A stretch of 64,000 bases of DNA. It comes from an uncultured delta proteobacterium. GTDB taxonomy: Bacteria; Desulfobacterota; Desulfuromonadia; Geobacterales; DSM-12255. The stretch covers positions 160,001-224,000 of the forward strand of contig CAWBBV010000006.1 of assembly GCA_963787125.1 (NCBI GenBank). Reading direction: 5' to 3'. The first letter of the stretch is position 1; every line of letters starts with the position of its first letter. Shown here piece after piece: positions 724 to 53,267 of this stretch. Under the pieces are notes generated by a model. The model was not told the origin of the DNA and searched no databases. It was given only the letters and a program-made list of their open reading frames with translations. The position numbers were made by a program, and so were the translations under genes.

Positions 724-933
724 ATGAAAGCTATGGACAAGCCAACCAAAACATCAAGCAACGACCTGGCGCTTCACTTGTGTGTCTATGCCGTCATGCC
801 TTTTATGGACTGTTACTGCCAGAAAATCACCGGCAGCTCTATCCCTAAAATAGCTAAATTCTGCATGACAGGTAATAGTGACTGCCCGGTTTTCGAGAAA
901 ATAGTTGCCAAAAAAGTCAGGCAGGCGGCGTAA
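724..933 (+). CDS. Small Cys-rich hypothetical protein (start may be 733)
   Basis: 69 aa ORF with five Cys (C-x9-CYC-x14-C-x6-CP), just downstream of the sigma54 site. Confidence 0.55.
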   Translation: MKAMDKPTKTSSNDLALHLCVYAVMPFMDCYCQKITGSSIPKIAKFCMTGNSDCPVFEKIVAKKVRQAA

Positions 934-937
934 GAAC

Positions 938-984
938 TGACGATCTTTCAACCCCTCCACGGGGGTACAAAAGATCATCATTTT
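938..984 (+). terminator. Long imperfect hairpin followed by TTTT (possible terminator/attenuator)
   Basis: TGAcGATCTTT..ACCCC / GGGGT..AAAGATCaTCA arms, then TTTT. Confidence 0.4.
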
Positions 985-1043
985 CAGCCGAGCGACCTCT
1001 TGATTTCTTGGCAGCTCAATTAACTAATTAGAAGGAGCAGCAG

Positions 1044-1154
1044 ATGGAAGGATACAGAATTTCAAATAAAAACAGACTGAACCAGCGTCACCCCCCCGTC
1101 CCCGGAGGTGGCGGGAGGCCGCCGAGCTGTGCCGGAGATGCTGCTCGCCGGTAG
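1044..1154 (+). CDS. Putative 36-aa leader peptide MEGYRISNKNRLNQRHPPVPGGGGRPPSCAGDAARR
   Basis: Strong SD GAAGGAG at 1031-1037, ATG 1044, TAG 1152-1154; below the ORF-track size cutoff. Confidence 0.5.
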   Translation: MEGYRISNKNRLNQRHPPVPGGGGRPPSCAGDAARR

Positions 1155-1227
1155 CAAGATGCACATAATCAATTTGATTGCGGGTAAATATACTTTAAGT
1201 AAAGAAACAGTATGAAGGAGACAAAAT

Positions 1228-1728
1228 ATGAACAAAAATTTCGGAAAAATTCTTTCAATATTTGTAGCGCTTACCCTTTTGGCTCTACCGCTGGCAGCCT
1301 GGGCAGAACCGAAGGTCGCCATCTCCGTCAAGGCGGAAAAAGAGGTTACGGTTACGGTGAAAGGTAAAGCAGTTAAAAAGAAGATTGTGGCCAAAGGTTT
1401 TCTGCCTGGAGAAGAGATTATCTACACTCTGAGCTATGTCAATTCAGGAACTGAGCCGGCTAAAGATGTATTCATCACCGATCCGATACCGGCAGGCACC
1501 AGCTTCATCCCCGGCAGCGCCAGCGATGCAGACAAGGCGACTTTTTCGATCAACAACGGCAAAAGCTACAGTAAACCGACTCTGTTGACCTACGAGATCA
1601 AGTCTGCTGATGGAAAATTTCAGAAAAAAGTAGCAGCGCCTGAAGAGTATACCGACATCCGCTGGACGATCCCATCTGTCCCGGCAGGCGGGAAGGGTTC
1701 AGTCAATTTCAGGGTAAAAGTGAAGTAA
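1228..1728 (+). CDS. Secreted single DUF11 (conserved repeat) domain protein
   Basis: SD AAGGAG; signal peptide ending AWA; PGEEIIYTLSYVN...ITDPIPAG...IRWT...FRVKVK. Confidence 0.9.
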   Translation: MNKNFGKILSIFVALTLLALPLAAWAEPKVAISVKAEKEVTVTVKGKAVKKKIVAKGFLPGEEIIYTLSYVNSGTEPAKDVFITDPIPAGTSFIPGSASDADKATFSINNGKSYSKPTLLTYEIKSADGKFQKKVAAPEEYTDIRWTIPSVPAGGKGSVNFRVKVK

Positions 1729-1768
1729 TCACCATTAAAAGAAACAGTACCGATGAAAGGAGACTCTT

Positions 1769-3436
1769 ATGAACTGTAGAAGCAGAGCCAGACCGCCGAC
1801 GAATACTTCAGGCATCGGATCGACAACGGAGAAAAGAAGCAGGGCGCGACCACCGACGAATTTGCAGGAACGAGGATCACCGATGAACAGAAACCATGAA
1901 ACATACACAGACAGTACAAAGAAAATCACAAAGGAGAACGTCATGAGAAGCACACAAAGCAGTTTTCTTCACAAGCAGCGAGCCCTGCTGGGCCTCCTGG
2001 CACTGGCAGCAACAGCTGTTGTCGGCATGCCGGTCAGCGCCTCAGCCAGCTCGACCGCAGGCACGACCATCATGAACCACGTCACCGTCAACTACAAGGA
2101 TGCCGGCGGGTTCAACACCTACAACGCCGACGCCACCACCATCGTCACCGTCAACCTGGTTATGGCGCCTCTCACCCTCAGCGCTGCACCAGTAGGCAAC
2201 GCAGCACCCGGAGCTCTTTCCTGCACATCCATCGCCACCAACTACGCATCCGGCAGCACGATCAATTTCCTCTATGCTATGAGAGCAAATGCCAACGGTG
2301 CTGACACCACCGGCGGCGGCACCAAGCTCTCCATGGCGAACACGCCGGCCAACACCAACAACGTCACGGTCAACTACTCAACCCTTGACTACACGGGGGG
2401 GAGCCCGGTTGCAAATCCGGCAACCCGGATTTTCGGCGCTGCCATTCCGACCGCCGTCCTCAGCGAAACACAACTGCAGTTCCCGGGCGGCGCCCTGTCA
2501 GGCTTTGCAGTCAATGACCTCGTTGCCGTGCCCACATCTGCCGGCGTAAGAGTCTACCTGGTAACCGCTGTCAGCGTCGGAGCAGCACCGGTATACAGCC
2601 ATACCGGCAATACCACCTATACCGACGTCGGCACTTTTGTAGGCGGCGCTAATCACGTCGAAACCAAGGGAACTCTGACCCTTGGCGCCTGGGCTACCCA
2701 GTCGATCACCCTGAACGGATCCGCCACAAGCTTCGGCGGCACCCCGGCTCCGACCCTTGCCACTGGCAACACGTTAACCCCCAATACCCCGATCGGCGAA
2801 ATGGTACTTGTCAAGGTTGACGTCTCAGCCAACAACAGCAACCTGCTCGCCGGAACCGTCGACTTCACCCTGACCACGACCGACAGCGCAAGCGGCAACC
2901 CCGCAACTGCTCCATGTACTGCCGGCACGTTCCAGGCGCCGACGCTCAGTATCAAGAAAGAGGCCAGCAACTTCACTGCAGCACCCGGTACTTTTGGTGC
3001 AACCGCAACCGGTAACCCCGGCCAGATCCTCGAATACCGCGTGACCGTCACCAATGCCGGTGGTCAGGCAAGCCTGGTAAATGTCTCCGATGCAGTGCCG
3101 TCATATACCTCCCTGGTTACCGGGTTAACGTACGGCACCGGCGCAGGGACGATCTTCGCAAAAGTAACTGACAATGCTGCACGAACCGTCGAACTGACCA
3201 CAACCGTCGATTCGGAAACACAGCCGGTCGGCAACAAGCTGTCCTACGGCGATGCTGCCGGGACAGCTGCACTCTCTGCGTTGAAATTCTGGATGGGAGA
3301 CACCGCAACCAACGCAGCAGGCGGTAAGCTCCCCTACTGCAGCTCCGGCGCTTTCACCACTTCAGCAACCTGCACCGGCGGTGGCGGAACCTGGATAACA
3401 ACCCTGACGATCCTCTACCAGGTAAAAATAGACTAA
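1769..3436 (+). CDS. Secreted DUF11-domain protein, candidate major fibre subunit (alternative starts 1883 and 1943)
   Basis: Signal peptide, then AGTTIMNHVTVNY; C-terminal LSIKKE...PGQILEYRVTVTN...VSDAVP...YQVKID. Confidence 0.9.
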   Translation: MNCRSRARPPTNTSGIGSTTEKRSRARPPTNLQERGSPMNRNHETYTDSTKKITKENVMRSTQSSFLHKQRALLGLLALAATAVVGMPVSASASSTAGTTIMNHVTVNYKDAGGFNTYNADATTIVTVNLVMAPLTLSAAPVGNAAPGALSCTSIATNYASGSTINFLYAMRANANGADTTGGGTKLSMANTPANTNNVTVNYSTLDYTGGSPVANPATRIFGAAIPTAVLSETQLQFPGGALSGFAVNDLVAVPTSAGVRVYLVTAVSVGAAPVYSHTGNTTYTDVGTFVGGANHVETKGTLTLGAWATQSITLNGSATSFGGTPAPTLATGNTLTPNTPIGEMVLVKVDVSANNSNLLAGTVDFTLTTTDSASGNPATAPCTAGTFQAPTLSIKKEASNFTAAPGTFGATATGNPGQILEYRVTVTNAGGQASLVNVSDAVPSYTSLVTGLTYGTGAGTIFAKVTDNAARTVELTTTVDSETQPVGNKLSYGDAAGTAALSALKFWMGDTATNAAGGKLPYCSSGAFTTSATCTGGGGTWITTLTILYQVKID

Positions 3437-3449
3437 ACAGACCATCAGC

Positions 3450-3473
3450 CCCGCCCCTATAAAAAGGGGCGGG
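3450..3473 (+). promoter_or_regulatory. Intergenic GC-rich stem-loop without a U-tract (possible mRNA-stabilising element)
   Basis: CCCGCCCCT-ATAAAA-AGGGGCGGG, perfect 9-bp stem. Confidence 0.6.
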
Positions 3474-3492
3474 CAGCAAAAGGAGAAGACAG

Positions 3493-4770
3493 ATGAAAAA
3501 GTCGATGCAAATATTAATAACTGCGCTGTTCCTGTCGATTATGACACTTTCAGCGAGCACCGTTCTGGCGTATACAACTGCGTCCAACACCCAGATCATA
3601 AACACTGCAACGCTTAACTTTACCGGCGGCACGGCAACAGCCAGCGTCGTTGTAACTGTTGGCCTGATTCCGTCTGCGCCGGCACTCGCCATCACTAATG
3701 GCACTTCCGCCTATACTGCCGCCAACACTCCAGCCATTATTGACAGCCTCTCAATCACCTCCAGCGCCAACGGCCCGGCGCAATACACTGTCAGTGCTCT
3801 GGCAAGCGCAGTTGCCAACTCTAATCTGGCACTCAACTCAGCGATAACTGTTGCGCTGCCAAATCCGATCACCATCGGCGCAACCATCACTAATGCCAGC
3901 ACCACATGGGGAACCCTTAAAGTCCCTTCCGACGGCACTGCCGACTCAATAGTCAACAATATCCAGCTCAACTCCTGGATCACCTTTAACGTCGGCACCG
4001 GCAACATTACCAGACAGGTACTTTCTGTAACTGACCCTGGCACAACAGGGACTGCAACCATAACCTTTGTCACAGCCGGTGGAGATCCTGCCACAGTCCC
4101 GGCCGGTACGCCAATCTATGAGAAGGTTTTTGTAAATCTCACGGTTGTTCCCGGAACAGTCGCTACCCCCGGAACTCCGATCGACGTGACCGTAACTGCA
4201 ACAGTTGCAACACCAGGCGTAGCAGTCAGCCCAACGATTACAAATGGTGCACCCAACCATTGGACAACCCCCCCTGCCGGCGTAACAATCGACAAATATG
4301 TGCGTAACGCCACAACTGATGCGTCTACTTTTTTCATAGCACCAGGAGTAGCGCCGTCACCATACAGCACCACTATTAACGGGGCAACCCACAACTACTA
4401 CAGAAGTACTTCTACCTCCGGTGTCAGTGCCAAACCGGGTGAAGTTCTCGAATACCTCGTTGAAGCTACCAATACAAGCGGCCCACCATCTGCAGTCCCT
4501 GCCATGGATATTGCCGGCTGTTTCATCACCGACGCACTCCAGACAACCTATGTCACTCTTACCCTCGGCCAAATGTCCGGCGGCAAAGACCTCTGGTACA
4601 TTCCACCTGCTGGCGGAGTTGGCGCTAACTACAACATAGCCGATCTCGGCTCTTTTGTGTCGCCGACACTCTCCGTGAACGTTGGCAACGGCGCCGGGGC
4701 AGGAGCAGCTACAGGAACCATTCCGGCCGGAAAGAAAGTCTCGATTCTTTACCGTGTAACCGTGCTCTAA
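3493..4770 (+). CDS. Secreted DUF11-domain protein, candidate second fibre subunit
   Basis: Signal peptide, then NTQIINTATLNF; C-terminal VTIDKYVRN...PGEVLEYLVEATN...ITDAL...YRVTVL. Confidence 0.9.
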   Translation: MKKSMQILITALFLSIMTLSASTVLAYTTASNTQIINTATLNFTGGTATASVVVTVGLIPSAPALAITNGTSAYTAANTPAIIDSLSITSSANGPAQYTVSALASAVANSNLALNSAITVALPNPITIGATITNASTTWGTLKVPSDGTADSIVNNIQLNSWITFNVGTGNITRQVLSVTDPGTTGTATITFVTAGGDPATVPAGTPIYEKVFVNLTVVPGTVATPGTPIDVTVTATVATPGVAVSPTITNGAPNHWTTPPAGVTIDKYVRNATTDASTFFIAPGVAPSPYSTTINGATHNYYRSTSTSGVSAKPGEVLEYLVEATNTSGPPSAVPAMDIAGCFITDALQTTYVTLTLGQMSGGKDLWYIPPAGGVGANYNIADLGSFVSPTLSVNVGNGAGAGAATGTIPAGKKVSILYRVTVL

Positions 4771-4804
4771 AAAGAGTTTTTTCAAGTAAAGGAAAGTCAA
4801 CAAC

Positions 4805-7800
4805 GTGCTTATAACCCGGACTCAAAATTTCTGTAGCAGGATCAGCGGCTCATTCGCCGCTGCCCTCCCCCGTATATCGGGTGGCAACGACGCAACTGCG
4901 CCTCGCCATGCTACAGAGGTTCGTCCGGTTCATTCGCACGGCAATAACACCATGAAGTGGCTCTGGACGGCGCTCTTCCTCATCTGCCTCGCGCCGTTCC
5001 AGGCCATTGGAGCAAGTAATAACACCCAGATCGTAAACAGAGCACAGCTCAATTCTGACGCCCCTGCAGCAATCGCAACCAATGTGGTAACGCTGCAGAC
5101 GGGCCGCACAGCCTCAACAGTAGAATTCCTCAAATATGCGCCCGGGGTTGCAGGCACCGTCAACACTCACGTCGGCAACAGCTATTACAAGGACTCTTCC
5201 GCTGCATTTACTCCGGTAAATAACCCGGTTGCGGTCGGTACAGGCACCCCCATAGACCTGTCAGCCCCTGTGCCACTTATGAAAACAACCATGTATCACG
5301 CCGGTGAACCGCTTTTTGTCAAGGTAACCGACCTGGATCAAAACCTGGATAGAACCGTCGCGGAGACCGTTCTGGTAACCCTCACAGACAAAACCACCGG
5401 AGACACCGAAGTTCTCAGAATCACTGAAACCGGCCCCGATACGGGCATCTTTATCGGCTACATCCAGACAGCATCTACCGCTGCTAACGGCGCCGGCAAC
5501 GGAGTGCTGACTGTTTCCGAGTCAAGTTCCATCGATGCTCATTATGTCGATACCGTTGACGGCACGGACAGCTCCGCTGACGCAGCGCTTGTAGACCCGT
5601 TCGGGATACTCTTTGACACCATGACCGGCAATCCGGTTGACGGCGCAACGATAGAACTTTTGAACGCCGACGGCACAGCTGCCACTGTTTATGGTGACAA
5701 CGGCCAACCAACCAACAGCTATCCGAACAAGGTAATATCCGGCAGCACGGCAAAAGACGCCGAAGGCAACACCTACACCTTCACTCCGGGTGGCTACAGA
5801 TTCCCCTACGTAAATCCGGGGAGCTACATCCTGAAGGTAACTCCGACCAATAACTACAGCTCCCCTTCAACAGCCACTACCCAGTCCATCCAGGTGCTGC
5901 CGGGCGCTCCTTATGTCATCCTTGAGCCGGGTTCACGGGGTGAAACCTTTACCGTACCTGCCGGCCCGGCCATACGGGTTGATATTCCGCAGGACCCAAA
6001 AATCGGCACTCTCTGGCTCACCAAAAGTCCCGGCAAAGGTATCATCTCCGCCGGAGAGCGCCTTAACTACGACCTTACTCTCGAAAACAACTCTGCCGTG
6101 GGAACAATTTTTTCTCCGGTGATTACCGATATACTTCCACCAGGCTTCCGCTATGAAAAGGGCTCTACCAGAATCAACGGCACCGCTGCCCCTGACCCAT
6201 CAATCTCGCCGGACGGCAGCAGCATGACTTTTGCTCTCGCCACTATCCCGCCAGCAACTACCATCACACTCCGCTATGTGGTTGGTATCGGCGCCGGCGC
6301 CAAAACCGGTACAGCAACAAACATCGCTTTTGTCAATGCCGCCGCGGCGGTGAAATCCAATATTGCCAAAGCTGCGGTTCTTGTCCAGGAACCGTTCATG
6401 CAGAGCCGCAACATTATTATGGGGCGGGTTTCAGTAGGCGTTTGCGGTGACAACGGTGATGACAACAAAAAAGGGATGGCAGACATCGGCATCTATCTTG
6501 AGGATGGTACTTTTGTCATGTCCGACAGGTTCGGCATGTTCCACTTTGAAGGGGTACAATCCGGCTCGCACGTTGTCCAGTTGGACCTGGACTCTATCCC
6601 TGAAGGGTACAAAATCCTGCCATGTGAGCAGAACAGCCGCTTCGCAGGTCGCGCTTACTCCCAATTCGTTGATCTGCAGGGTGGGACAATGTGGCGCACA
6701 GACTTCTATCTTGGCAAAGATCTGCTCACACAACCTACGGCAGTTGCGTCAACAGAAAAAAGCACAGCAGCAGGCAGGGGTGCTGAAGCGCAGCCTGCCA
6801 CTGAGGTTGCCACTCAGATTGCTTCTGTAGAGAAGAGCTCGGCAGCAGATTCAAAGCTGGCCGCAGCCAGCGTTAAAGGTTCTGACACTGCCACGCCGGT
6901 AAATTACAAAGGTGAGATTAGTCTGGAGATGATCAGCAGCCAGAGCGGAGACTTCATCGATTACCGTATTCCGCTACAGACAGCAACAGTGCCGTTAACC
7001 AATCTACGCCTCACGGTTACGCTGCCGGCGGGAGCCATTTATGTCAAAGGGAGCAGCAGTCTTGACAGCGCTGCACTCACCGACCCCACAGTCATTGCCG
7101 GCAGAATCCTCGCCTACCAGCTCGGCGCTACCGGCGCCGACTCGCAGCAAGAGCTCCGTTTCCGGGTAACTATCGACCGGAAAGCCAGGGGTGGCGAACT
7201 GCAGACAAAAGCCGGCCTTACTTTTGACAGCCCGGCGACCAAAGACATTACGGCGCCCGCTGTAGACAATCTTCTTTCTCTCGTTAAAGAAGAAGGCCGG
7301 CTGGCACTGCCGAAAATAGTTATCCGGCCTCAATTCCCGACCTTTGGCGCCGAATTGAGTGAGGAAGATCGCAAGCAGCTTGATGAGCTTGCCCAGATGC
7401 TCGCTCGCTTTAAAATTGACCACATTGACGTAGTCGGTCATACAGATATAGTCAGGATCGCACCACGCAGCCGTAACATTTACGCTGACAATACCGCCCT
7501 CTCCTTTGCCAGAGCAAAAAGCGTCGGCCGTTACCTGACCGCAGCTCTCCATCTTCCACCCGAAAGCCTCAACCTGAGCGGCAGCGGCGAAAGAGAGCCG
7601 ATTGCGACCAACAAAACCGCTGAAGGCCGGACCCTGAATCGGCGTGTAGAGGTTAATGTCTCGGCAGCGCAAACTATCGAAACTTCCAGACTCACGATTA
7701 CCAAGGAAAGAAGTGGGCTGAAAAAACAGGATACCACCGGCGTAACTATGAAGCAGACCGGTGAAGAGCTGAACAACCTCTCCCCGCTGCAGCCGAAATA

Positions 7801-10800
7801 TGAAACCATGGTTGTGCAGCCAGCGTCCAATGCCACAGAAACCGTCATTGCTGCCGGGAATTCAGCCTCAGCAGCCCCACTGCAGCAGGTTGCCCGGCAG
7901 GAAAAGATGGCAAAGCAGGAAACAACCAGCACACAGAAAAACACCTCTGCTTTAATCCCTGCAAAAAGTGAAGAACACGTTGCACTGTTCTCGGCCATCA
8001 ATGAAGGGGTTGTGCACTACCGGCTCAAACTGGTCAACATTAAAGAGCCGCTGAAAAATGTTACCGCGACCCTGATAACACCAAAGAGCTTCCTCTACGT
8101 GACCGGCACCAGTAAGCTTGCCGGGCTCTCTATAGCCGATCCGGCCTCAACTGAAGCGGTAGTCAGCTACAGTTTCACCCAGCTGCAGGATGCGAAGACG
8201 TTTGACGTTACTCTCCAGGCACTGATTGACGGCGATGACAGAAATGAAGCGCTTGGCAGCAGTGTCACGGTTGTCATAGCAGACAAAGATGGCAAGCCTC
8301 TGAAAACCTACACAGCTACAGCTGAACTCTCTGACAACATGGAGGATATCAATAAGCAGGATATTCCGGTCACAGCGCCTGTAAATGCGGCTGCAGCGGA
8401 GAATAACGAGAAAGAACCCGGCATTAAAACCAATGAGCAGCTTTACGAGTATATCGAGAAAGTCGCTTTAAAAACAAAGGACGCAAAAACAGATGCAGCA
8501 GTTACTGATAGCGGGCTCCATGTAAAAGAGATGGAGGGGATCCTTTCACCGGCTGACACCTCTATTCTCGCTACCAGGATCAACGCGGTCAGGATTGTTC
8601 TGAACTCTGCCTTGACTCCGGTTTTAACCGTTGACGGCAAAGAGGTTTCCGCCGAACGGATCGGTTTCAGCATGAAGGATAAAGAGTCCGGCAAATCCCT
8701 TTATACCTATATCGGCGTTGATTTTGGTGAGGAGGGGGAACATCTTCTTCAGCTTAAAGGGGTGGACGGCTTCAATGTTGCCCGGTTTGACAAAACCGCT
8801 AAAATCACCAGAACCGGCGAGATTGCCTCAATCAGGCTTGTTTCTGCCGAAAATAACATTGCTGACGGTAAAACCCCGGTCCGGGTCAGAGTCCAGCTGT
8901 TTGACAAACTGGATAAACCTGTCCCGGCAAACGCCGAACTTTCTATCAAGGGTGGTGATCTGAAGGTTATCACTATTGGCGAAAGCTATTCCAGAACAGC
9001 CGGCAACGCCACGGTAACTGTTGCTGAAGATGGCTGGATCAGCTTTGCACCGGTCACTTCCAGCGGTCTATACCGGACACACCTCGCCTACAACAAAGCT
9101 GAGATTGACATCGAGACCTACGTCAAACCGAAGATGCGTGACTGGATTCTCGTTGGTTTGGCTGAAGGCACTGCCGGTTATAACACTGTCTCCGGCCATA
9201 TGGAAAACCTGAAAAACTCGGGTGAGGAAGACCATCTTTACGACAAAGAGCGGCTGGCGCTGTATGCCAAAGGGACGGTCAAGGGTGAATGGCTCATGAC
9301 CATGGCTTATGACAGCGCCAAGAAAAACACCGGCGTCGTCGGAAACGGGCTCTTTCAGACCATCGACCCTAACTCCTACTACACTATCTATGGCGACTCT
9401 TCAGCACAGATGTACGATTCTGCCAGCCAGAGGAAACTTTACTTAAAGATCGAACGTGAGCAGTTCTATGCCATGTTCGGCGATTACGATACGGGTCTGA
9501 CCTTTACCGAACTATCACGTTACAGCCGCAGAATGAACGGCGTCAAATCGGAATACCGCTCAAAAAATTACGACGTTACGGTTTTCGGCAGTGAAACCGG
9601 CCAGTCATTTGTCAAGGATGAGCTCCGCGGCGACGGCACTTCCGGTCTGTATCGGCTCAGCAAACAAGGGATTGTCCTTAATTCCGAGAAGATCACTATC
9701 GAGTCCAGGGATAGATTCCATAGTGAAGTTATCACCGAGACCAGACAGATGAACCGTTTTGTCGACTACAGCATTGATTACGACACCGGCGCCATTTTCT
9801 TCAAGAGTCCGGTTCCGAACAGAGACGAGAAACTTAACCCGGTTTACATTATTGTCGATTACGAGATCCTGAATGCAGGTAAAGATGCCTTAACCTACGG
9901 TGGCCATGCAGCCACCAGACTGATGAACGGCAAGCTGCAAGTCGGCGGCACCTATGTCCATGAAGGCCACATCAGCGGTTCAGGCAATTTATATGGTGCG
10001 GATGCAACAGCCATTCTGGCGCCAGGGACAAAGGCAAGAGCCGAGTTTGCCGCCACAAATGACGATACCGGTGTCAAGAAGAGCGGCAATGCATATCTGG
10101 CAGAAGTTGTTCATACCGGGAAATCGATTGATGGCAAGGTCTACTTCAGGGAGCAGGAAGAGGGCTTCGGCCTTGGCCAGCAGAAAGCCAGCGAAGGGGG
10201 CACCCGTAAATTTGGCGTCGAAGCCGCTTACAGGCTGAACAATAAAGTTACGTTGAATTCCCAGGGGTATCGGCAGTACAACCTGTCTACCGGCGCAGTC
10301 AGGGACTTTGCAGAAACGCTTGCCTCCTACAATGAAAAACAGTACACCTTGAGAACCGGAATCCGCTATGCAAACGACACCCTCCCTGACGGCACCAATG
10401 CAACATCAGTTCTGGCAACTGCCGGCGGCAGCTGGAAATCTGCCGATCAAAAATTGACCCTGCGTGCCGACCATGACCAGGCTCTTTTCAGTAAAAATAT
10501 CAACACTGACTTCCCTACCAGAAGCGTTCTCGGCGTTGATTACCAGGCAACAAAAGCTGTCACGCTCTTCGCCCAGGAAGAGCTTACCTACGGCGCCGCC
10601 GCCAATACCAACACCACCAGAGTCGGAGTTAAATCTACCCCCTGGAGCGGCGGCACCGTTAACTCTTCAGTTGTGAATGACATACGGGAAAATGGTGAAA
10701 GAACTTTTGCCAATGTAGGTTTAACCCAGAAATGGCAGCTCAACCCGCACTGGGCTGTAGATGGTGGTCTGGATCACAGTGAAACCATCCATAAAAAGAT

Positions 10801-11578: not shown

Positions 11579-11733
11579 GTCGTCGTGGGTAACAGCACAG
11601 GGGTACGGCTGGCAGGATTTCGCCACCAGTGCACTGCCGGAATGAGTAACCACCTGATTGTCAGTCGTTCATTTCAAAGGCTCACCATGCAACAAGGCAA
11701 TAAAAAAAAATATCTGCATCTCAGCTGACAGCT

Positions 11734-14700: not shown

Positions 14701-15840
14701 AACAACACCACCGGAGCAGTTTCTGCCAGCGGGCCGATTACCCTCAACGGTCTAGTCTCCAACACTGCCACGGTAACTGTCCGGCCGATTCCGACGGTAC
14801 AGATACAGAAAACCTCCACCAACGGCACCGGCGCTTTTGGCTATACCATGACAAACCTGGCAGCTGCTACCGCAACTATTACCACAGTAACTGCCGGCAC
14901 TGCAGTGAACGGCACAGCCAACAATGTGACGTTGACGACGAGCAATGTCACCATCACCGAGGGGACCGTCCCGTCAGGCTGGCCCGCCAATCCGGTCTCT
15001 GCGTCCTGTTCCGATTCCAACAGTGCGGTCACCGGTAACCCTGCTTCTTTCGGCTCACTGGCAGGAAACGTACTCACGATCCTTTCGGCCAATCTTCTGC
15101 CAGGGGGGGTGATCACCTGTTCGTTCGTGAACACGGCAACCGCCACCATCACCGTCAACAAAACGCTCTCCCCTTCATCAAGCGGCGGCACCTTTAATCT
15201 ACTTGTCGGGGCCGCCACGGTTGCCTCAGCAGTCGGCAACGGCGGCAGCGGCGTTGCAACAGTGCCGGTTGGCGTGACAGTGTCTGTCAGTGAAACTGCT
15301 GCCGGCACAACCAATCTGGCTGATTACGATTCATCCTATAGCTGTACCGGAGGGGTTACCGGTTCGGGAACCAGTGTCAACATTACACCGACCATTGGCC
15401 TGGCAGTTACCTGCACTTTCACCAACACTCTCAGGATGCCGCTCCTCTCCATACTCAAATCTGCCAACAGAGCAACCGTTAACCCCGGACAAGTCATCGT
15501 CTATACCGTGCAGGTCGTCAATTCCGGCGCCGGAGTGGGCACCAATGTCGTCCTGACTGATGACCTCAGTCCTTACTCATCGTTTGGCCTGAACAGTTAC
15601 GGAGCTGGCGTCCGTTTCGCCTTTACCGACAGCACTCCGACACCATCAGGACTCTCGCTCGGCACGCCGGAGTATTCCTACACCAATGGTTCAAGCTGGT
15701 TCACAGCGCCTCTCACTGATCAAGGCGGCGGTGCTCCAAGCGGCTATGACGGCCTCGTCACCAACTGGAGAATCCCAATGACCGGCACCATCAGGGCAGG
15801 TGGCAGCTTTATTCTCAATTACCAGGTGATTGTGAAGTAG
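11734..15840 (+). CDS. Large fibrillar adhesin: N-terminal putative binding domain, Calx-beta, prealbumin/SpaA-like and four K-D-N Ig repeats, C-terminal DUF11
   Basis: Signal peptide ending AHA; Calx-beta pattern (GTAVRGIDY...TILDDD); repeats starting LTKGF, LTKSF, LTKSF, IAKAF. Confidence 0.88.
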   Translation: MGRLSNRAAGAIKPALKCLAGMAFTALLIVMITSLPAHAVQRSFLNNGFESIWGPLVGANTNYCWVYDGSEYPWLSNDNSAAGTGPCNGYNGGSYGSGTNIVEIWFNNFNGVPARAGNVHAELNANTASTLHQNVCVLQNEDITWRLSHRGRDGVDQMQYYIGNAVTGMVLDASTGNTGATTINACQTGTSVTTTSACTQSTVNTWGDYGGVFKWLGPSAVTSVNFQAISTNGGAGSLTVGNFLDEVYFYLKPIVEFSASNSSGLESVATPASPKLRVVGALTSPLTVSVSITGGTAVRGIDYTTPNGSADFTVTIPVGNYVETDSFNTGIQIINDKIANGDRTIIMKVNADSAYIISSSATCGGAVNNPATYTILDDDANIRLIKTTIGGTGTFTYTLTNVDTNLVTAGNQTAASITTTVAGTPVEFDADSGTAGIQPILVAAVGTRVDITETIPGGWSLSGSCSVTGGTNPTAAPIAINSTTGFVRIPSANLTAGSTATCFFNNTNSLSLTKGFSTGTIGVGQTARLTYTITNPAGGTAKTGLSFTDSFQSNLVVAATPNVVNNCGGTTPTATGGNTSFAVTSVNAAAGTSTCTISVDVTSTIAGSYVNGYGQVSTTAPLVNGVTAQTLNVVQAGLTKSFNPTTIDPGGTSTLTFTLANGSGNPAQSGINFKDTLPANVAVAGTPAITSTCLSGTGVVTTTAGPPGTITVTGASMSNDMATCTITVNVTSNVPGGPYSNTSGSISGLARLTNNVTQSDLYVRGVNLTKSFNTGTIAVGQTARLTFAIQNPAGSAAKTGLSFTDLFPTGLVIAATPNVVNTCGGTTPSASGGATSFVVNSVNSAVGPSTCTIAVNVTSSSASNGYVNGAGQLTVTAPLLNGVTDQTLKVLAPPTIAKAFGAASISLNGTTSLNLTVTNLNTGTAISGIAFTDTLPPGLTAANGTTAACNGGSLVISGSNLLTFTGGTLAAGANCVISATVTGTSTGAKNNTTGAVSASGPITLNGLVSNTATVTVRPIPTVQIQKTSTNGTGAFGYTMTNLAAATATITTVTAGTAVNGTANNVTLTTSNVTITEGTVPSGWPANPVSASCSDSNSAVTGNPASFGSLAGNVLTILSANLLPGGVITCSFVNTATATITVNKTLSPSSSGGTFNLLVGAATVASAVGNGGSGVATVPVGVTVSVSETAAGTTNLADYDSSYSCTGGVTGSGTSVNITPTIGLAVTCTFTNTLRMPLLSILKSANRATVNPGQVIVYTVQVVNSGAGVGTNVVLTDDLSPYSSFGLNSYGAGVRFAFTDSTPTPSGLSLGTPEYSYTNGSSWFTAPLTDQGGGAPSGYDGLVTNWRIPMTGTIRAGGSFILNYQVIVK
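15487..15542 (+). repeat. 56-bp exact repeat shared by the C-terminal domains of the two adhesins (second copy 21378-21433)
   Basis: GGACAAGTCATCGTCTATACC...GGAGTGGGCAC is identical. A second block, 15778-15836 vs 21660-21718, has one mismatch. Confidence 0.9.
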
Positions 15841-16001
15841 GCACGTAGCCAACTTAGTTAAACTCTGGATATATTATCCCGGTGATAAATGACTCTAATT
15901 GAGATGGTACCCACTACAGGCTGCTAATCCCGGTCAACCGGGAAATTTTTGATATATTTGCATAGAAGAATTTTTGCGGAGATGCTCAGATTGTAATCGC
16001 A

Positions 16002-19000
16002 ATGATTTGCGGAGAAACAGCAATGCTAAATATTTCAAAATCACTTCTTACCATTCCCTCCCCGGCGAAATTTTATTGCCGTCGTTTTCTGCTGCTATTC
16101 TATCAACTATTACTCGCTTATCTGATCCTCCCGCTCTTCAGTATTTGCGTGGCTCACGCCGCTGTCATCAACGAACCGATGACCAATGCCACTGCGCCAT
16201 CCTGGGTTATCGGCGGTTCAGCCTTCCTGACCGCCAGCTCCGGTCTTGACCCGAACGGCAACGGCTGGCTGCGGCTGACAGATCTCAACACGAATCAGGC
16301 CGGCTTCGCTTATCTTGACTCCGGTTTCAGCATCTCCTCCGGCGCAGTGATTTCTTTTGATTACACGTCATGGGGGGGGGCTGGTGACGGCGGATTCGGC
16401 TGCGGCAACACCGGTGCCGATGGCTACAGCGTGTTCCTGTTTGACGGCTCGCAAAGTTTTTCGGTCGGCGCCACGGGCGGATCACTCGGCTATGCGCAAA
16501 AGACAGTTGCACCGGTCAATACAGGCCTTGCCTATGGCTATATCGGTATCGGCGTTGACGAGTGGGGTAACTTCGCCAACCAGACAGAAGGGCGGATCGG
16601 CGGTGTGGGGGGTATTTGTAACGGCGTAGCAGTGCGCGGCCCCTACAACCATCCATCCGGCAAATACAACTATCTTGGCGGCAACGCCAGTGGAGCCGTG
16701 CTCGCCTATCCAGGACTGGCCTTCCGCCCCCAGCAGGATGGCGGCCAGTACCGCAAAGTTCTCATCTATCTCACCCCCCAGGCAGCGCCCAACTACCTGA
16801 AAGTAGACGTCTACCTGCAATCAGGCTACAGTAGCTTCCCGGTTCAGGTAGTCAATGGACTCATGGTCGCCCAGCCCATTCCGGCAACGGTCAAGATCGG
16901 CTATGCCGCCAGCACCGGCGGGTCGAACAACTATCATGAGATTCGTAATCTGATCATCGATCCGCTCCCCACTTCCGATATCGACCTGACAATGGCAAAA
17001 ACCGTTTCCTCTTCTACGGTGACGCAAGGGGGGGCGATCTCGTATGGCCTTATCGTGCGCAATACCGGCCCGCTTAATGTTACCGCCACCAACGTGCCGA
17101 TCACCGACACAATTCCTGCAGCCATAACCGGGGTCACCTGGACCTGCGCCGGCTCAGGCGGCGCAACCTGCGGTGCGGCGTCAGGCAGCGGCAACAGCAT
17201 CAACACCACAACAACACTCCCCCTGAACGGCTACGCGACCTACACCATCAGCGGTACCGTCAGCGCGGCAACCCCGCTCGGCACGGTTATCAACAATACT
17301 GCCACCCTGACCCCGCCGGCAGGGATCACCGATCTGAACGCCGGCAACAACAGCGACACAGCAACCACGACTGTTACCAGCGGCACTGTTGCCCTGTCAG
17401 GAAACATCTTCATTGACAACGGCGCTGGCGGCGGCACCGCCTACGATGGCATCAAAAACGGCACTGAAGCCAATGTTACTGCCACGACCATCGGCAATAC
17501 CTACTATGTCAAGGTCTACCGGTCCAGCGACCTCACCACGCAGGTCGGGATTGCGACAGTGGCGGGCGGTGCAAGCACCTATTCCATCAACGTTCCTGCT
17601 TACGGCACGTATACGGTCATTCTCAGTTCAGACAATACGACTAACTTTACCCCCTCCTTACCAAACGTTCAGTATATCTATACTTTGCCCCTGAACTTCA
17701 CCCTGACGAATGTAGTAACAAGCGGCGCCGCCCTGCCCAATCAGAACTTCGGTGTATTTCGTGGCAGCCGCATCAGCGGCAAGGTCATCCGTGACACCGG
17801 CTTGAACGGCAGCATTGCCAATGCCAACGATGGCATACTCAACGCCGCCGAGACCGGCATTTCCGGCGTTACCGTTACCTTGCGCAACAATACCGGCGGA
17901 ACTACTTATGATACCGAAATTACCGATGCTAATGGTAATTTTACCCTTTATACCAATCTTGCCACCACTCCCCTGCGCATTTATGAAGCAAACCCGGTCG
18001 GCTACACGTCGGTGAACGCAAATATCGGTACCACCGGCGGCACCTACACCATCGGCACCGATTTCATCGACTTTCCCGGCTACACCCGGTATACCGATTA
18101 CAGCGGCATCATTTTCAGTGATGTTCCTAACAACACCTTCCTTCCGACACCGCAAAGCGCCGGCGGATCGTCACAAGCCCCGGTATACTTCCCCCATACC
18201 TTCACCCCTGGCAGCGGCGGCAGCGTCACTTTCGCCACCACCGGGCGAACCCAGACGACCTGGCCGGCGATAGTCTACTATCGCGACACAAACTGCAGCG
18301 GTACCTATAACCCGGGCGAACCGGTCATCAGCGGGGCAATTACCGCCTCGGCCAACACCCCGATCTGCATCCTGGTAATGGATACTGTTCCCGGTGGCAC
18401 CACCCCCCCCGCAACCGACACCATTACCACGACGGCAACCTTCACTTTCACCAACTCTGTCGGCCCGGTAACTTCAACGCATGCGGTTATTGACACCCTG
18501 AACGTCTATACACCGCCGACCCTCACCAAGACCTTTGGAGCGTCGAGCATCCTTGCCGGGGGCAACACGACCCTGACCTTGACTCTAACCAATCCGGCCG
18601 CCAATCCTGCCGCTATCACCACCGTCAGCATGGATGACACCTTCCCCGCCGGGCTGACCCTGCAGAACAATACAATCACCTTCACCCCGGCTTTCTGCGG
18701 TACGGTCACCAGGATCTCCGGCGCTGCTTCGGCAGCCGGCGACAACAATGTCCGCTTTACCGCCGGATCCATAGCTTCAGCAGCCACCTGCCGGGCGGTA
18801 ATGAATGTTACCAGTTCGACCGCCGGCAGTATCACCAACACCACCACAGCGCCGACAGCGGCCGGACCGGCAACAACCACCGGCACTGCGGCTTCGGCGG
18901 TGCTGATCATCTATGCCAAACCGACGGTCAGCAAAGCTTTCGGCTCTTCCACCATTTCCAGCGGCGACAGCACCACCATGACCCTGACACTCACAAACCC

Positions 19001-21722
19001 GAATGCTCTGCCGCTGAGTGGCGTCGCCATCGCCGACACCTATCCGACCAACCTGCGCAACCTCAACACAACCACCGGCGGAACCTGCACCGGCACCAAG
19101 ACCGCGTCCGCCACCGCCACCAATCCCGGCACCCTTACCCTGACCGGCGGCAGTCTCGCCGCCAATGCCAACTGTACCATCACCGTCACCGTAACGTCGT
19201 CAGTCGTCGGCGCCTACACCAACACAACCGGCGCCCTCACCTCAACCGAGACTCCGACTGCCGACAACACCGCAACTGCCCCCATGACTGTAGCGGCTAC
19301 CGGACTGGCGCTTACCAAAACTTTCAGCCAGTCTCAGGTGCAGGCAGGTCCCGCAGCAGCCGGTCTCGACATGATCTTCACCATCACGAACATATCGCTT
19401 ACCACTGCGGCGCAACAGATCGTCTTCAGCACACCTGACACCATGCCGACTGCTGGCGGCTCACAGATGACGCTTAATACCATCCCCAACGCCTGCACAA
19501 TCACTGCTGCCAGCCCGGTCGGTTCCTGCGGTTTCAACGGCGTTACTGCCCTGGGCACCGCCGTTCCGAATACGCAGGCAAATACTGCGCTGCAATTTGC
19601 TACTACCGGCACCGGCCTGAGCCTGGCCCTTAACTCGTCCTGCACCATCACCTGCCCGGTAACCATTGCAGCCGCCACCACCGGCGGCACCTACACTAAC
19701 AGTGCACCAGTGCTTGCCTCCGTCGGCGTTCCGGGTGTTACCGGTAGTTCGGCGTCGGTTGTCGCCCTGAAGCCGCCAACCATCACCAAAGCGTTCTCAC
19801 CCGACACGATCGGTACCGGCCTGACTTCAACCATCACCTTCACGCTTGGCAACACTGCTGCCAGCACCGTTGCCTACAGCAGTTCCACCTTCACCGACAC
19901 ACTCACCAACATGAGTATCTCCGGAAATCAGACAGCAGGGGGCACTTGCGGCGGCGTTGCCGGTAACAGCTTTACCAGCGGCCAGACCGGACTGCTCACC
20001 CTGACCGGGCTGACGATTCCTGCCGGCGGCAGTTGCACGGTGACGCTGCTGGTCACCAGTTCAACTGTCGGCGCCAATGCCAACACCACCAGCGGCATTA
20101 CCACCACCCAGACACCTGCGGCCGGAGCAGGCGCGACCCCGGTTAACCTGACTGTTGTCGGTACCGACCTGACCAAGGTGTTTTCACCGGCTACAGTCAG
20201 AACAGGGCAGAAATCCACGGCAACTTTCACCATTACCAACGGCGCCAGCGCGCCGGCCCAGTCCGGCTTCGCTTTTACAGAAACTTTCCAGTCCAACCTG
20301 GTTCTGGCCACCCCTGCCAACCTCTCCACCACCTGCGCAAGCGGCGCAGTCAGCGGCACTTCCGGCACCAGAATCCTTACTTTCAGCAGCGGTAGCATGA
20401 CACTCGGACAGACGAGCTGTACGGTTACAGCAGACATCGTCAGTTCGGTTGCCGGCAACTACTCGAACCCGACTGGCAACATAACCGGAAAATCAACCGG
20501 CATGACCTACAGCAGTAACCCGTCACTGGCTGTATTCAACAACCCGGTACTGACCAAAGCCTTCGCCACCAACCCGATCGGTGTCGGCCGGGTATCAACT
20601 CTTACTTTTTCAATCGCCAACCCGGCAGGAGCCCCGGCCAGCAGCGGCCTGACCTTTACTGACACCTTTCCGGGCGGGCTGGTGATCGCCGCAACACCGA
20701 ATGTGGTTAACAACTGCGGCGGTACTCCCACCATTACCGCCACTGCCGCCAGCGGCGTTTTCACCATCGGCGGCAGCGGCGTTGTCACAACGGTTGGTCC
20801 GTCAACCTGTACTATTTCGGTTGACGTCACCAGCAACAGTGTCGGAAGCTACACCAATGGTGCAGGCCAGATTACCCCTATCTCCGGAACCCTGTCGAAC
20901 GGCGTCACCAATCAGACCCTTTCCGTGGTAGGCACAAAACTGACCAAGGCGTTCGGACTCGCAAGCGTCGGTGTCGGCGGCTCCAGCACGCTCACCTTCA
21001 CCATTACCAATGATGCTACCCACCCGGCGCAGTCTAACTTGACTTTTACCGACACCCTGACTATCGGTGCAGGCCTTTCCATTACCGGTGTCACTCCCCT
21101 GTCAGGAGCCAACTGTTCTGCCACAATGCCGACATTCAACACCACCAGTAACCCTTCAGTGACCCTGACCGGGGCTACGATGGCTGCAGGAGCAACAACC
21201 TGTACCTTTACTGCTACGGTCAGAGGCAATACTTCCGGCACATACAGTAACAATAACAGTAACTTCAGTGCTACTTCTCCGGCAGTTGATACCTCCGGTG
21301 TAAATGCCACACTGACTGTTTATGATCTACCGTTGATCTCCATTTTAAAGTCAGCCAATGTTGCAACCGTTAATCCAGGACAAGTCATCGTCTATACCGT
21401 GCAGGTCGTCAATTCCGGCGCCGGAGTGGGCACAAGTGTACTTCTTACCGATGACATGAGCCCCTACGGAGCACTTAGAATCAACAGCGGGGCGCCATTT
21501 ACCTTTACAGATACCAGCACCCCTACCCTATCAGGACTTACACTCGGCACCCCTGAGTATATCCACAATTACAGCGGCACTTGGGTTACAACGCTTACTG
21601 ACGGCGGCGGCAACGCTCCGGCAGGTTATGACGGCACTGTCACCAACTGGCGGATTCCGATGACCGGCACCATCAGGGCAGGTGGCAGCTTTACTCTCAA
21701 TTACCAGGTGATTGTGAAATAG
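16002..21722 (+). CDS. Large fibrillar adhesin: L-type lectin-like domain, complete DUF11, SdrD-B-like domains, seven Ig repeats, C-terminal DUF11 (start likely 16023)
   Basis: WLRLT...GADG...GGSLGY...DEWGN...GYAASTGGSNNYHEI lectin pattern; seven TK(A/T/V)F or SKAF repeats with paired Cys. Confidence 0.9.
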   Translation: MICGETAMLNISKSLLTIPSPAKFYCRRFLLLFYQLLLAYLILPLFSICVAHAAVINEPMTNATAPSWVIGGSAFLTASSGLDPNGNGWLRLTDLNTNQAGFAYLDSGFSISSGAVISFDYTSWGGAGDGGFGCGNTGADGYSVFLFDGSQSFSVGATGGSLGYAQKTVAPVNTGLAYGYIGIGVDEWGNFANQTEGRIGGVGGICNGVAVRGPYNHPSGKYNYLGGNASGAVLAYPGLAFRPQQDGGQYRKVLIYLTPQAAPNYLKVDVYLQSGYSSFPVQVVNGLMVAQPIPATVKIGYAASTGGSNNYHEIRNLIIDPLPTSDIDLTMAKTVSSSTVTQGGAISYGLIVRNTGPLNVTATNVPITDTIPAAITGVTWTCAGSGGATCGAASGSGNSINTTTTLPLNGYATYTISGTVSAATPLGTVINNTATLTPPAGITDLNAGNNSDTATTTVTSGTVALSGNIFIDNGAGGGTAYDGIKNGTEANVTATTIGNTYYVKVYRSSDLTTQVGIATVAGGASTYSINVPAYGTYTVILSSDNTTNFTPSLPNVQYIYTLPLNFTLTNVVTSGAALPNQNFGVFRGSRISGKVIRDTGLNGSIANANDGILNAAETGISGVTVTLRNNTGGTTYDTEITDANGNFTLYTNLATTPLRIYEANPVGYTSVNANIGTTGGTYTIGTDFIDFPGYTRYTDYSGIIFSDVPNNTFLPTPQSAGGSSQAPVYFPHTFTPGSGGSVTFATTGRTQTTWPAIVYYRDTNCSGTYNPGEPVISGAITASANTPICILVMDTVPGGTTPPATDTITTTATFTFTNSVGPVTSTHAVIDTLNVYTPPTLTKTFGASSILAGGNTTLTLTLTNPAANPAAITTVSMDDTFPAGLTLQNNTITFTPAFCGTVTRISGAASAAGDNNVRFTAGSIASAATCRAVMNVTSSTAGSITNTTTAPTAAGPATTTGTAASAVLIIYAKPTVSKAFGSSTISSGDSTTMTLTLTNPNALPLSGVAIADTYPTNLRNLNTTTGGTCTGTKTASATATNPGTLTLTGGSLAANANCTITVTVTSSVVGAYTNTTGALTSTETPTADNTATAPMTVAATGLALTKTFSQSQVQAGPAAAGLDMIFTITNISLTTAAQQIVFSTPDTMPTAGGSQMTLNTIPNACTITAASPVGSCGFNGVTALGTAVPNTQANTALQFATTGTGLSLALNSSCTITCPVTIAAATTGGTYTNSAPVLASVGVPGVTGSSASVVALKPPTITKAFSPDTIGTGLTSTITFTLGNTAASTVAYSSSTFTDTLTNMSISGNQTAGGTCGGVAGNSFTSGQTGLLTLTGLTIPAGGSCTVTLLVTSSTVGANANTTSGITTTQTPAAGAGATPVNLTVVGTDLTKVFSPATVRTGQKSTATFTITNGASAPAQSGFAFTETFQSNLVLATPANLSTTCASGAVSGTSGTRILTFSSGSMTLGQTSCTVTADIVSSVAGNYSNPTGNITGKSTGMTYSSNPSLAVFNNPVLTKAFATNPIGVGRVSTLTFSIANPAGAPASSGLTFTDTFPGGLVIAATPNVVNNCGGTPTITATAASGVFTIGGSGVVTTVGPSTCTISVDVTSNSVGSYTNGAGQITPISGTLSNGVTNQTLSVVGTKLTKAFGLASVGVGGSSTLTFTITNDATHPAQSNLTFTDTLTIGAGLSITGVTPLSGANCSATMPTFNTTSNPSVTLTGATMAAGATTCTFTATVRGNTSGTYSNNNSNFSATSPAVDTSGVNATLTVYDLPLISILKSANVATVNPGQVIVYTVQVVNSGAGVGTSVLLTDDMSPYGALRINSGAPFTFTDTSTPTLSGLTLGTPEYIHNYSGTWVTTLTDGGGNAPAGYDGTVTNWRIPMTGTIRAGGSFTLNYQVIVK

Positions 21723-24017: not shown

Positions 24018-24024
24018 TGCGCTG

Positions 24025-52273: not shown

Positions 52274-52411
52274 TGGTATTATCCTTTAACGGATTCTCTG
52301 TAAATGTGAAGAATGGAGAACCGGCCCTCGCATTCTCCTCAACAGCTCGTTCTGCTTCCAACAGTGAAAACAGGTTTCATCCCTCATAATTCATCCTTCA
52401 TAATTGTATTT

Positions 52412-52485
52412 CGCTTGGTGGCGTCGGTCCAGGTCGCGCCGGGGGCGCGGTTGAGGGAGGCGAAGTGTTTGATGGATGTGGTGAG
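52412..52485 (-). repeat. 74-bp exact duplicate of the 5' end of the SBD-HNH gene (51031-51104)
   Basis: CGCTTGGTGGCGTCGG...GGATGTGGTGAG is identical at both sites. Confidence 0.92.
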
Positions 52486-53212: not shown

Positions 53213-53245
53213 TAATCTGACAACATTTTTGGAATTAAATACATT

Positions 53246-53267
53246 AAGGCGGCCGATCGGCCGCCTT
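53246..53267. terminator. Perfect 22-bp palindrome between convergent genes
   Basis: AAGGCGGCCGATCGGCCGCCTT is its own reverse complement. Confidence 0.6.

Follow-up and report, generated by a model that had tools for sequence, protein, structure and literature searches.

A candidate surface fibre system built on a split DUF11 domain in an uncultured delta proteobacterium

The gene cluster

A stretch of 64,000 nucleotides (nt) from an uncultured delta proteobacterium (GenBank assembly GCA_963787125.1, contig CAWBBV010000006.1, positions 160,001 to 224,000; hereafter the window) carries six + strand genes in series (1228-21722), whose translations read as Sec-exported products. Most of these proteins end in a truncated DUF11 domain (the acceptor), and some carry the apparently missing piece, a β-hairpin (the donor), near the N-terminus. 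This arrangement suggests a surface fibre or stalk in which the subunits complete one another. The genes are listed below, with protein lengths in amino acids (aa).

1228..1728, + strand: P0001 (S), small secreted protein, 166 aa; bare acceptor-type DUF11 domain, no donor hairpin, C-terminal end FRVKVK
1769..3436, + strand: P0002 (A2), shaft or adaptor subunit, 555 aa as an open reading frame (ORF); N-terminal donor hairpin and C-terminal acceptor domain, end YQVKID
3493..4770, + strand: P0003 (A3), shaft subunit, 425 aa; signal peptide, donor hairpin, immunoglobulin (Ig)-like middle domain and acceptor domain, end YRVTVL
4805..11578, + strand: P0004 (giant base protein), 2257 aa; N-terminal extension ahead of the signal peptide, then the donor hairpin, DUF11 (complete) and Ig-like domains, an OmpA domain and a barrel at the C-terminal end
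11734..15840, + strand: P0005 (adhesin 1), 1368 aa; DUF7933 and SpaA-type isopeptide-domain repeats, C-terminal acceptor (YQVIVK), no donor hairpin
16002..21722, + strand: P0006 (adhesin 2), 1906 aa; complete DUF11 domain, six DUF7933 stretches, SdrD_B-type domains, C-terminal acceptor (YQVIVK), no donor hairpin

The real start of P0002 is likely Met59 of the ORF, at nt 1943. Several of the proteins are recognised by existing family models. P0001 matches Pfam DUF11 (1.5e-8, 35.4 bits; cut-off 24.6) and TIGR01451 (4.9e-14), and the same Pfam cut-off is passed by P0005 (35.0 bits) and P0006 (79.2 bits). P0002 and P0004 pass TIGR01451, with the P0002 match at aa 415-452, and P0003 itself falls below both models. 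The repeat-domain families of P0005 and P0006 are among the isopeptide domains listed in PMC12617251. Between the S and P0002 genes lies a 27-nt direct repeat with 85% identity (1778-1804 and 1835-1861), which would read SRARPPTN twice if the P0002 ORF began at 1769.

A DUF11 domain apparently divided between proteins

DUF11, also called CLIPPER, is an experimentally shown isopeptide domain with a Lys-Asp-Asn triad and a catalytic Asp (PDB 9IFR; K715, D748 and N806), according to PMC12617251. Complete internal DUF11 domains of the cluster carry their own Asn strand, namely GTVINNTATL in P0006 and GTATNIAFV in P0004. The P0006 domain (aa 328-455) spans Pfam DUF11 positions 1-113 of 114 and contains a strand ending YTISGTV, followed by GTVINNTATL, a loop and SDTATTTV. 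The spacing of its triad (K333, D369 and N432) resembles that of 9IFR.

The five C-terminal domains are built differently: their translations stop before the Asn strand, ending in FRVKVK (P0001), YQVKID (P0002), YRVTVL (P0003) and YQVIVK (P0005 and P0006), a stop that can be written as a strand of the form ...Y(Q/R)V.V. The Asp motif is present in all five, as FITD, NVSDAVP, FITDALQ, VLTDDLSP and LLTDDMSP. The first-strand Lys is kept in four (LSIKKE, TIDKYVRN and SILKSAN, the last occurring twice) and is ambiguous in P0001; in P0002, the acceptor Lys and Asp columns are both kept. Thus, the isopeptide Lys, Asp and Asn stand together in one domain of one chain in the internal domains of P0004 and P0006, and not in the five C-terminal domains.

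An earlier reading, made from the sequence alone, had placed the missing strand directly after the signal peptide. This was borne out in position for P0002, P0003 and P0004, although the element is a two-strand hairpin (aa 30-57 in P0003) and not a single strand. The donor and acceptor elements, together with the intact comparison domain of P0004, are located as follows.

2057..2161, + strand: donor hairpin of P0002, AGTTIMNHVTVNY...ATTIVTVNLV; it reads TTIMNHVTVNY...ATTIVTVNLV
3580..3663, + strand: donor hairpin of P0003, aa 30-57, NTQIINTATLNF-TGG-TATASVVVTV, including Asn37; strands 33-43 and 46-56 in the AlphaFold2 (AF2) model
4255..4767, + strand: acceptor domain of P0003, aa 255-425, with Lys268 and Asp347; interface in the complex prediction at 264-270, 319-325 and 340-350
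5012..5104, + strand: donor hairpin of the giant P0004, SNNTQIVNRAQLNS...; match to the hairpin profile weak (domain E 0.059)
6002..6379, + strand: complete internal DUF11 domain of the giant P0004, with its own Lys (WLTKS), Asp (VITDILP) and Asn (GTATNIAFV); TIGR01451 match at aa 410-460

The donor motifs GTTIMNHVTVNY, NTQIINTATLNF and NTQIVNRAQLNS lie 2-6 residues past predicted type I signal peptides, the type and cleavage sites of which were judged by eye; the giant opens with NTQIVNRAQLNS directly after its signal peptide. The hairpins follow the pattern T-I/L-x-N-x-A/V-x-L/V-x-Y/F. A hidden Markov model (HMM) built from 56 hairpins of other loci detects those of P0002 (ORF aa 101-135, E 6.8e-12) and P0003 (E ~1e-11), and by eye, N37 of the P0003 hairpin aligns with N432 of P0006. 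The resulting layout is as the sequence-only reading had described it: P0002 and P0003 hold donor plus acceptor, P0001, P0005 and P0006 an acceptor only, and P0004 a donor only, the giant being without a C-terminal acceptor domain.

P0003 is tied to the DUF11 family because a profile of S aligns with the C-terminal domain of the P0003 family (hhalign probability 91.8%, E 7e-7), with FITD falling on D347 and the tails aligned. By this comparison, S amounts to a bare acceptor domain whose end coincides with that of P0003. Searches against solved structures were less specific. A phmmer search of the Protein Data Bank with the complete P0006 DUF11 domain recovered neither 9IFR nor an adhesin, giving only a chance-level match (E 0.021), and Foldseek and VIA-align with the P0003 model returned only generic tandem Ig-like folds, including integrin, transglutaminase, complement and AgI/II isopeptide domains.

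Conservation across loci

To place the cluster in a wider context, relatives of P0003 and of the whole locus were collected. At E<=0.001, 29 relatives of P0003 were present in the database, and 27 were aligned with P0003 to give 28 sequences; the window's own protein at another start (P0007) and a 630-aa form (P0014) were excluded. Residues N32, N37, K268, E320, D347 and Y420 are invariant in all 28. A scan of one genome per species gave 89 pattern matches, of which 31 were confirmed, representing 27 distinct loci from Geomonas, Geobacteraceae, Desulfuromonadales, Smithella/Syntrophaceae, Alcanivoracaceae, Spongiibacteraceae, Pseudomonadales and HTCC5015, with several Gammaproteobacteria among them. 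These share the gene order acceptor-only adhesin(s), S, P0002-like, P0003-like and giant. S is present in 26 of the 27, and the remaining locus (L016) begins within its P0003-like gene at a contig end. The C-terminal piece of the giant is whole in 21 loci and in frameshifted pieces in 2, while the contig ends first in 4.

The donor motif was counted in the first 200 aa of + strand stop-to-stop ORFs across the 27 loci plus the window. It occurs in all P0003-like proteins (27/27) and in 32 of 36 P0002-like proteins, where 2 of the 32 are spurious and the 4 misses are fragments or small adhesins. By comparison, it was found in 0/27 S proteins, 1/14 large adhesins and 15/374 background ORFs. Outside the S and P0003 families, acceptor tails carry the Lys in 50/50 cases and the Asp in 49/50, the exception being a fragmented ORF of a metagenome bin. 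A conserved triad whose Asn comes from the N-terminus is therefore found in the 28 shaft relatives, and its Lys and Asp in nearly all other tails.

A second, diverged split-DUF11 system lies on contig 11 of the same genome (L030 7882-19901, L031 2-7738). It includes an S-like protein, a 958-aa donor-plus-acceptor protein with hairpin (NTPIGNASSATY), Lys and Asp, and a 2010-aa giant with hairpin and barrel (E 1.2e-129). Its acceptor-only protein is an open frame of 2578 codons with Lys (TLVKS), Asp (VINDTVP) and the end FSVQIQP, and its OmpA protein is encoded by a separate gene. The donor and acceptor logic is thus conserved in 27 loci of several bacterial groups as well as in this second system.

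Predicted fit of hairpin and acceptor

The fit of the two elements was examined by complex prediction with the P0003 acceptor (aa 250-425) and hairpin (aa 27-62) as separate chains, using a 28-row alignment for both. The complex scored 0.78, and the best of 3 controls 0.01. The mark applied was reached by 58/80 solved complexes and 2/110 mismatched pairs, counts that are only a rough guide here because our own alignment served as input. Three runs share at least 88% of contacts, with a partner predicted local distance difference test score (pLDDT) of at least 71. Hairpin strands 33-44 and 48-57 contact the first acceptor strand (264-270, with K268), 340-350 (with D347) and 319-325, and the lowest-error residue pairs include 347-39, 347-40 and 268-39. 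The sequence-only reading had expected strand insertion with Lys, Asp and Asn in contact; insertion next to Lys268 and Asp347 is indeed predicted, and Asn37 is not in the best pairs listed. Overall, the model supports a hairpin that would complete the acceptor fold, lying between the Lys strand and the Asp strand.

Whether such completion takes place within or between molecules is suggested by the distribution of the elements. Every locus holds acceptors without donor (the adhesins and S) plus one donor without terminal acceptor (the giant). Insertion in trans would follow for these, because donor-only and acceptor-only proteins cannot complete themselves, and a linear chain running from adhesin through links to giant would satisfy each element of the layout. 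For the link proteins themselves, insertion in trans is inferred by extension. The AF2 model of the P0003 monomer (mean pLDDT 82.9, predicted template modelling score (pTM) 0.58) has good domains and uncertain packing.

The giant protein, a proposed base

Beyond its hairpin, the giant has two regions that could hold a fibre to the cell.

7346..7642, + strand: OmpA-type peptidoglycan-binding domain of P0004, aa 848-946; Pfam OmpA 5.3e-14, with solved OmpA/MotB-type matches
9125..11575, + strand: C-terminal ~820 aa of P0004; conserved ~260-aa N-terminal module, then a β-barrel of ~32 long strands

The OmpA C-terminal-type domain (PF00691, 5.3e-14, 52.8 bits; cut-off 27.2) sits between the N-terminal Ig-like part and the barrel. 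For the ~820 C-terminal residues no Pfam family was found. An AF2 model of the last 822 residues, built on 21 sequences, shows ~32 long strands between piece residues 244 and 806 (mean pLDDT 68, pTM 0.47), unlike the 12-16-strand barrels of autotransporters or intimins, for which the giant likewise has no Pfam match. With this piece, Foldseek returned only large outer-membrane barrels (LptD, TonB-dependent transporters, FimD, SlpA and SprA) at a template modelling score of ~0.2; therefore the fold class is clear and the family is not a known one. In the ESM Atlas, it falls among unnamed outer-membrane protein clusters.

The barrel is the sole candidate export pore of the cluster, and no other outer-membrane component is encoded there. 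We infer that the N-terminal part of the giant passes once through the barrel lumen, with the OmpA domain staying on peptidoglycan. The best-conserved stretch of the protein comprises the first ~260 residues of the barrel piece (P0004 aa 1441-1700; window 9125-9900; pLDDT mostly <50), which may be a plug or docking module. This module also stands alone in ~810-aa proteins of one family of the phylum.

As a marker, the barrel is widespread. In a library of 1.84 billion proteins, it matched 4502 representative clusters at E<=0.001 and 2391 at E<=1e-30, and within the phylum it occurs in 36 of 401 sampled genomes. The only public names found were "hypothetical protein" and "uncharacterized repeat protein (TIGR01451 family)"; among the 11 cluster members listed for 6 looked-up proteins, 2 were named.

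Delta-type giants (window 4805-4950; L003-L020) share a conserved extension of 45-70 aa before the hydrophobic signal peptide, with the pattern h..h..L..R.sG..AG, and gamma-type giants lack it. The extension is reminiscent of the long signal peptides found in very large type V secretion proteins.

Missing assembly machinery

The machinery that assembles other pili was searched for in the cluster and the genome. The sortase family PF04203 is unmatched in the genome, which is 99.96% complete; as a control, the family was recovered from 3 of 14 named genomes. The Pfam matches of the cluster and its neighbours include neither a chaperone nor an usher family; the genome's one usher match (PF00577) lies on contig 14, and the window on contig 6. 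By eye, the protein ends show no LPXTG motif or hydrophobic tail, ending instead in the β-strand Y(Q/R)V.V, and the cluster has no TasA-family or signal-peptidase match. Together with the layout, the conservation of the triad, the predicted fit and the large barrel, this absence of sortase, chaperone and usher means that the sequence-only reading is supported in each part that computation could address.

Proposed assembly and its alternatives

The explanation that we regard as probable is a fibre or stalk that is complemented in trans, locked by isopeptides and anchored by the giant. In this model, the proteins would be subunits of a modular surface structure, exported by Sec and built on a split CLIPPER (DUF11, CnaA-like) domain. 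Each C-terminal domain would lack its last two β-strands while retaining the isopeptide Lys and the catalytic Asp, and the missing hairpin, with the isopeptide Asn, would form the mature N-terminus of the next subunit. Insertion of that hairpin into the preceding subunit would complete the fold by donor-strand complementation and unite Lys, Asp and Asn, so that a spontaneous Lys-Asn isopeptide could lock the joint. The far end would be occupied by the large acceptor-only adhesins, and perhaps by S as a plain cap, with P0002 and P0003 as links. At the base, the N-terminal hairpin of the 2257-aa giant would take the last acceptor, its OmpA domain would hold the cell wall and its barrel would lie in the outer membrane.

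Growth could proceed in either of two ways. At the base, as in chaperone-usher pili, the tip would be assembled first and the giant's tethered hairpin would terminate the chain. Alternatively, growth could be extracellular and at the tip, as in TasA/BsaA, with the giant nucleating the chain and the adhesins or S terminating it. S itself may simply cap the chain, regulate its length or hold free hairpins in the periplasm; a reversible role in some lineages would fit the partial loss of its Lys and Asp.

Several observations weigh against this model. The hairpin HMM does not match the last strands of complete DUF11 domains, so that homology between hairpin and last strand rests on alignment by eye, and Pfam DUF11 is reached by 0/28 members of the P0003 family at E<=0.1. 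The low-error contacts listed for the complex involve residues 39-44 and not Asn37, though residue 37 is inside the interface range 33-44. The passing complex score may be mere memory of intact CnaA-like domains, because these exist in the Protein Data Bank and the result could stem from likeness to them; it bears on completion of the fold, not on the molecule from which the hairpin comes. In principle, P0002 and P0003, which hold both elements, could complement themselves. The triad is also imperfect at two positions in the chain: the S family keeps Lys in 22/27 and Asp in 20/27 (Asn in the other 7), and by eye, the giant's hairpin keeps its Asn in 15 of 22 relatives (D, T, F, S, D, Q and Q in the other 7). 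Since S lacks the Lys in 5/27 and the Asp in 7/27, a covalent bond is impossible at some joints. Finally, the barrel model is of middling confidence, and the passage of subunits over the outer membrane without polymerisation in the periplasm lacks an explanation in the model. The principal doubts are thus whether the product is a polymer or a short stalk, and whether its joints are covalent or non-covalent.

The first of these doubts is expressed in a reading of the cluster as an anchoring device, a Gram-negative counterpart of sortase anchoring. Here, P0002 and P0003 would close on themselves as circularly permuted DUF11 domains or add only once, and the adhesins would be joined to the giant one to one or through a short stalk. 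A direct joint between acceptor-only adhesin and donor-only giant is possible, the giant's hairpin, tethered at the pore, would be a strong competitor for any acceptor, and the uncertain packing of the P0003 monomer leaves room for insertion in cis. Mere self-closure is nevertheless hard to square with the retention of two distinct donor-plus-acceptor proteins in nearly all loci. The strong score of the P0003 self pair as separate chains is also what a homopolymer would need, and giants in three loci carry a P0003-like N-terminal part (E ~1e-46), as expected of a terminal shaft-like unit. We consider this anchoring role unlikely.

With regard to the second doubt, complementation might occur without a covalent bond, with Lys, Asp and Asn kept because they pack and hydrogen-bond within the completed domain. 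The isopeptide is missing from some DUF11 domains (PMC12617251), and oligomers of the BsaA variant N35A are stable in sodium dodecyl sulphate (SDS) until heating (PMC11580942). Moreover, with the Asn absent from the giant hairpin in 7/22 relatives and the Asp from S in 7/27, complementation evidently works without the triad at such joints. In the shaft and adhesin joints, however, the triad is near-total (28/28, 50/50 and 49/50), in a family where the bond has been shown crystallographically, and purely non-covalent joints throughout therefore seem decidedly unlikely. It is also conceivable that the truncated DUF11 domain is an export or sorting signal for the giant's barrel, similar to the C-terminal domain of type IX secretion, with the hairpins being unrelated strands. 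The domain is common to all cargo-like proteins, and the barrel is the only outer-membrane component of the cluster. Against this, the complex prediction confidently places the hairpin in the acceptor, the Asn of the hairpin is invariant, and hairpins are confined to the proteins placed as links and base. We regard the sorting signal as very improbable as a full account, although a sorting role and a split fibre are compatible and not mutually exclusive.

Comparison with known systems

The closest precedent for the proposed fibre is BsaA of Clostridium perfringens, a member of the TasA family that polymerises by donor-strand exchange and an N-E-K isopeptide, as shown by mutants (PMC11580942). 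The proposed fibre would share with it an N-terminal donor inserted into the β-sandwich of the next subunit, an autocatalytic Asn-Lys lock with a catalytic acid, and independence from sortase. BsaA differs in its TasA/camelysin fold, its catalytic Glu (Asp here) and its single-strand donor. Its host is monoderm, and it relies on SipW-dependent processing and membrane anchoring, without an outer-membrane barrel or OmpA base. No sequence relation to BsaA was seen in the Pfam matches of the cluster, where the triad is N-D-K in a DUF11 fold.

A second precedent comes from the archaea. The thread of Sulfolobus acidocaldarius (Saci_0406) combines donor-strand complementation with an intermolecular isopeptide proposed from cryo-electron microscopy density (PMC9715654). 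As would hold for the present fibre, it is complemented head to tail without chaperone or usher and has a putative cap protein encoded beside the subunit gene. In the thread, the bond runs from Asn57 to the N-terminal amino group of subunit n+2, where the present model has a Lys-Asn bond between neighbours; its fold is also unrelated, and no outer membrane is present. Another archaeal system, tafi (PMC11821415), was considered as a relative and dropped, as its 'DUF1102' shares only letters with DUF11 and the system is a different one.

Within Gram-negative bacteria, the layout resembles that of chaperone-usher pili (type 1 and P pili), which have an acceptor-only tip adhesin, donor-plus-acceptor links and a donor-only terminal subunit; their incomplete Ig-like fold is filled by an extension at the N-terminus, and a barrel in the outer membrane forms the base. 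Unlike the proposed joints, theirs are non-covalent, use a one-strand donor and require a PapD-type chaperone and a 24-strand usher; in the present cluster, the proposed base subunit and the barrel form a single protein. A similar division into tip, stalk and anchor subunits, joined by strand exchange without chaperone or usher, is seen in the type V pili of Bacteroidota (FimA and Mfa1). Their subunits are first made as lipoproteins, a protease triggers the exchange of a C-terminal strand, and anchoring is by lipid. The present system is unlike them in having type I signal peptides (as judged by eye), an N-terminal hairpin donor and a triad for a covalent lock.

The chemistry itself has engineered parallels. 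In Tag/Catcher pairs (Isopeptag/pilin-C and SnoopTag/SnoopCatcher), a Lys-bearing truncated domain reacts with an Asn strand in trans. Those are man-made splits of Gram-positive pilin or adhesin domains, while the present split would be natural. The CLIPPER domain of 9IFR belongs to the same family and has the same Lys-Asp-Asn triad; it differs in holding the triad in one domain of one chain (PMC12617251), whereas here the Asn strand sits either on a second polypeptide or at the opposite end of its own chain.

The principle of donor-strand exchange with an autocatalytic lock is thus already known in BsaA and Sulfolobus, and it is for the diderm version that no description was found. A full-text search of the literature outside subscription journals and supplements returned no account of a split DUF11 fibre or of this giant. 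The first 300,000 characters of a 2026 review of bacterial surfaces describe intermolecular isopeptides only for sortase pili (PMC13721041).

Genomic surroundings

Genes flanking the cluster vary by locus and include two-component systems, GGDEF/EAL proteins and PMT/YfhO-type proteins, among others. In the loci compared, no conserved outer-membrane, chaperone, peptidase, ATPase or secretion gene was found beside the cluster. Directly downstream in the window (21903-26705) are a TonB-dependent receptor, a YfiR-like DUF4154 protein and a CHASE8 hybrid histidine kinase; this trio has a possible regulatory role and is absent beside the other loci examined. Smithella-type loci (L007 1714-3828, L008 791-4530) are flanked by PMT/PMT_2-TPR and YfhO-type membrane proteins; these are glycosyltransferase-like, a hint that the fibre there may be glycosylated.

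Further downstream, two tandem 382-aa DDE transposase genes with an IS240-type domain (40575-41723 and 42405-43553) are 100% identical and 1830 nt apart, followed by a cNMP-binding GGDEF protein (44585-45547). A region of low guanine-cytosine content at ~52-58 kb (51188-58278) contains genes for RhuM-family, N6-methylase and HATPase-domain proteins, possibly forming a mobile or defence island. Rfam gave 0 matches in window positions 1-27000 at gathering thresholds, and promoter and terminator scans of 900-5000 were at chance level.

Significance

Gram-negative pilus classes currently comprise chaperone-usher, type IV and type V pili, curli and a few others. If the model is true, it would add a class in which donor-strand joints lock themselves covalently and the fibre brings its own base in the outer membrane. 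More broadly, and more tentatively, the cluster may represent an unrecognised and widespread class of Gram-negative fibres, a proposal to which we give somewhat less than even credence. In such a class, split-isopeptide subunits would join head to tail into a self-cross-linked polymer, with no need of chaperone, usher, sortase or adenosine triphosphate (ATP). The giant would act at once as terminal subunit, cell-wall clamp and ~32-strand exporting barrel, and diverged pairs would be natural, possibly orthogonal, Tag/Catcher pairs. Split domains of this kind could yield new protein-ligation tools.

Cultured carriers exist, including Geomonas silvestris Red330, Geomonas limicola Red745 and the gamma proteobacterium HTCC5015, which makes the model directly testable. 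If it is true, diderm bacteria, monoderm bacteria and archaea would each have evolved "exchange and lock" independently. The hosts of these loci include metal-reducing and syntrophic bacteria, for which cell-cell and cell-mineral attachment are important.

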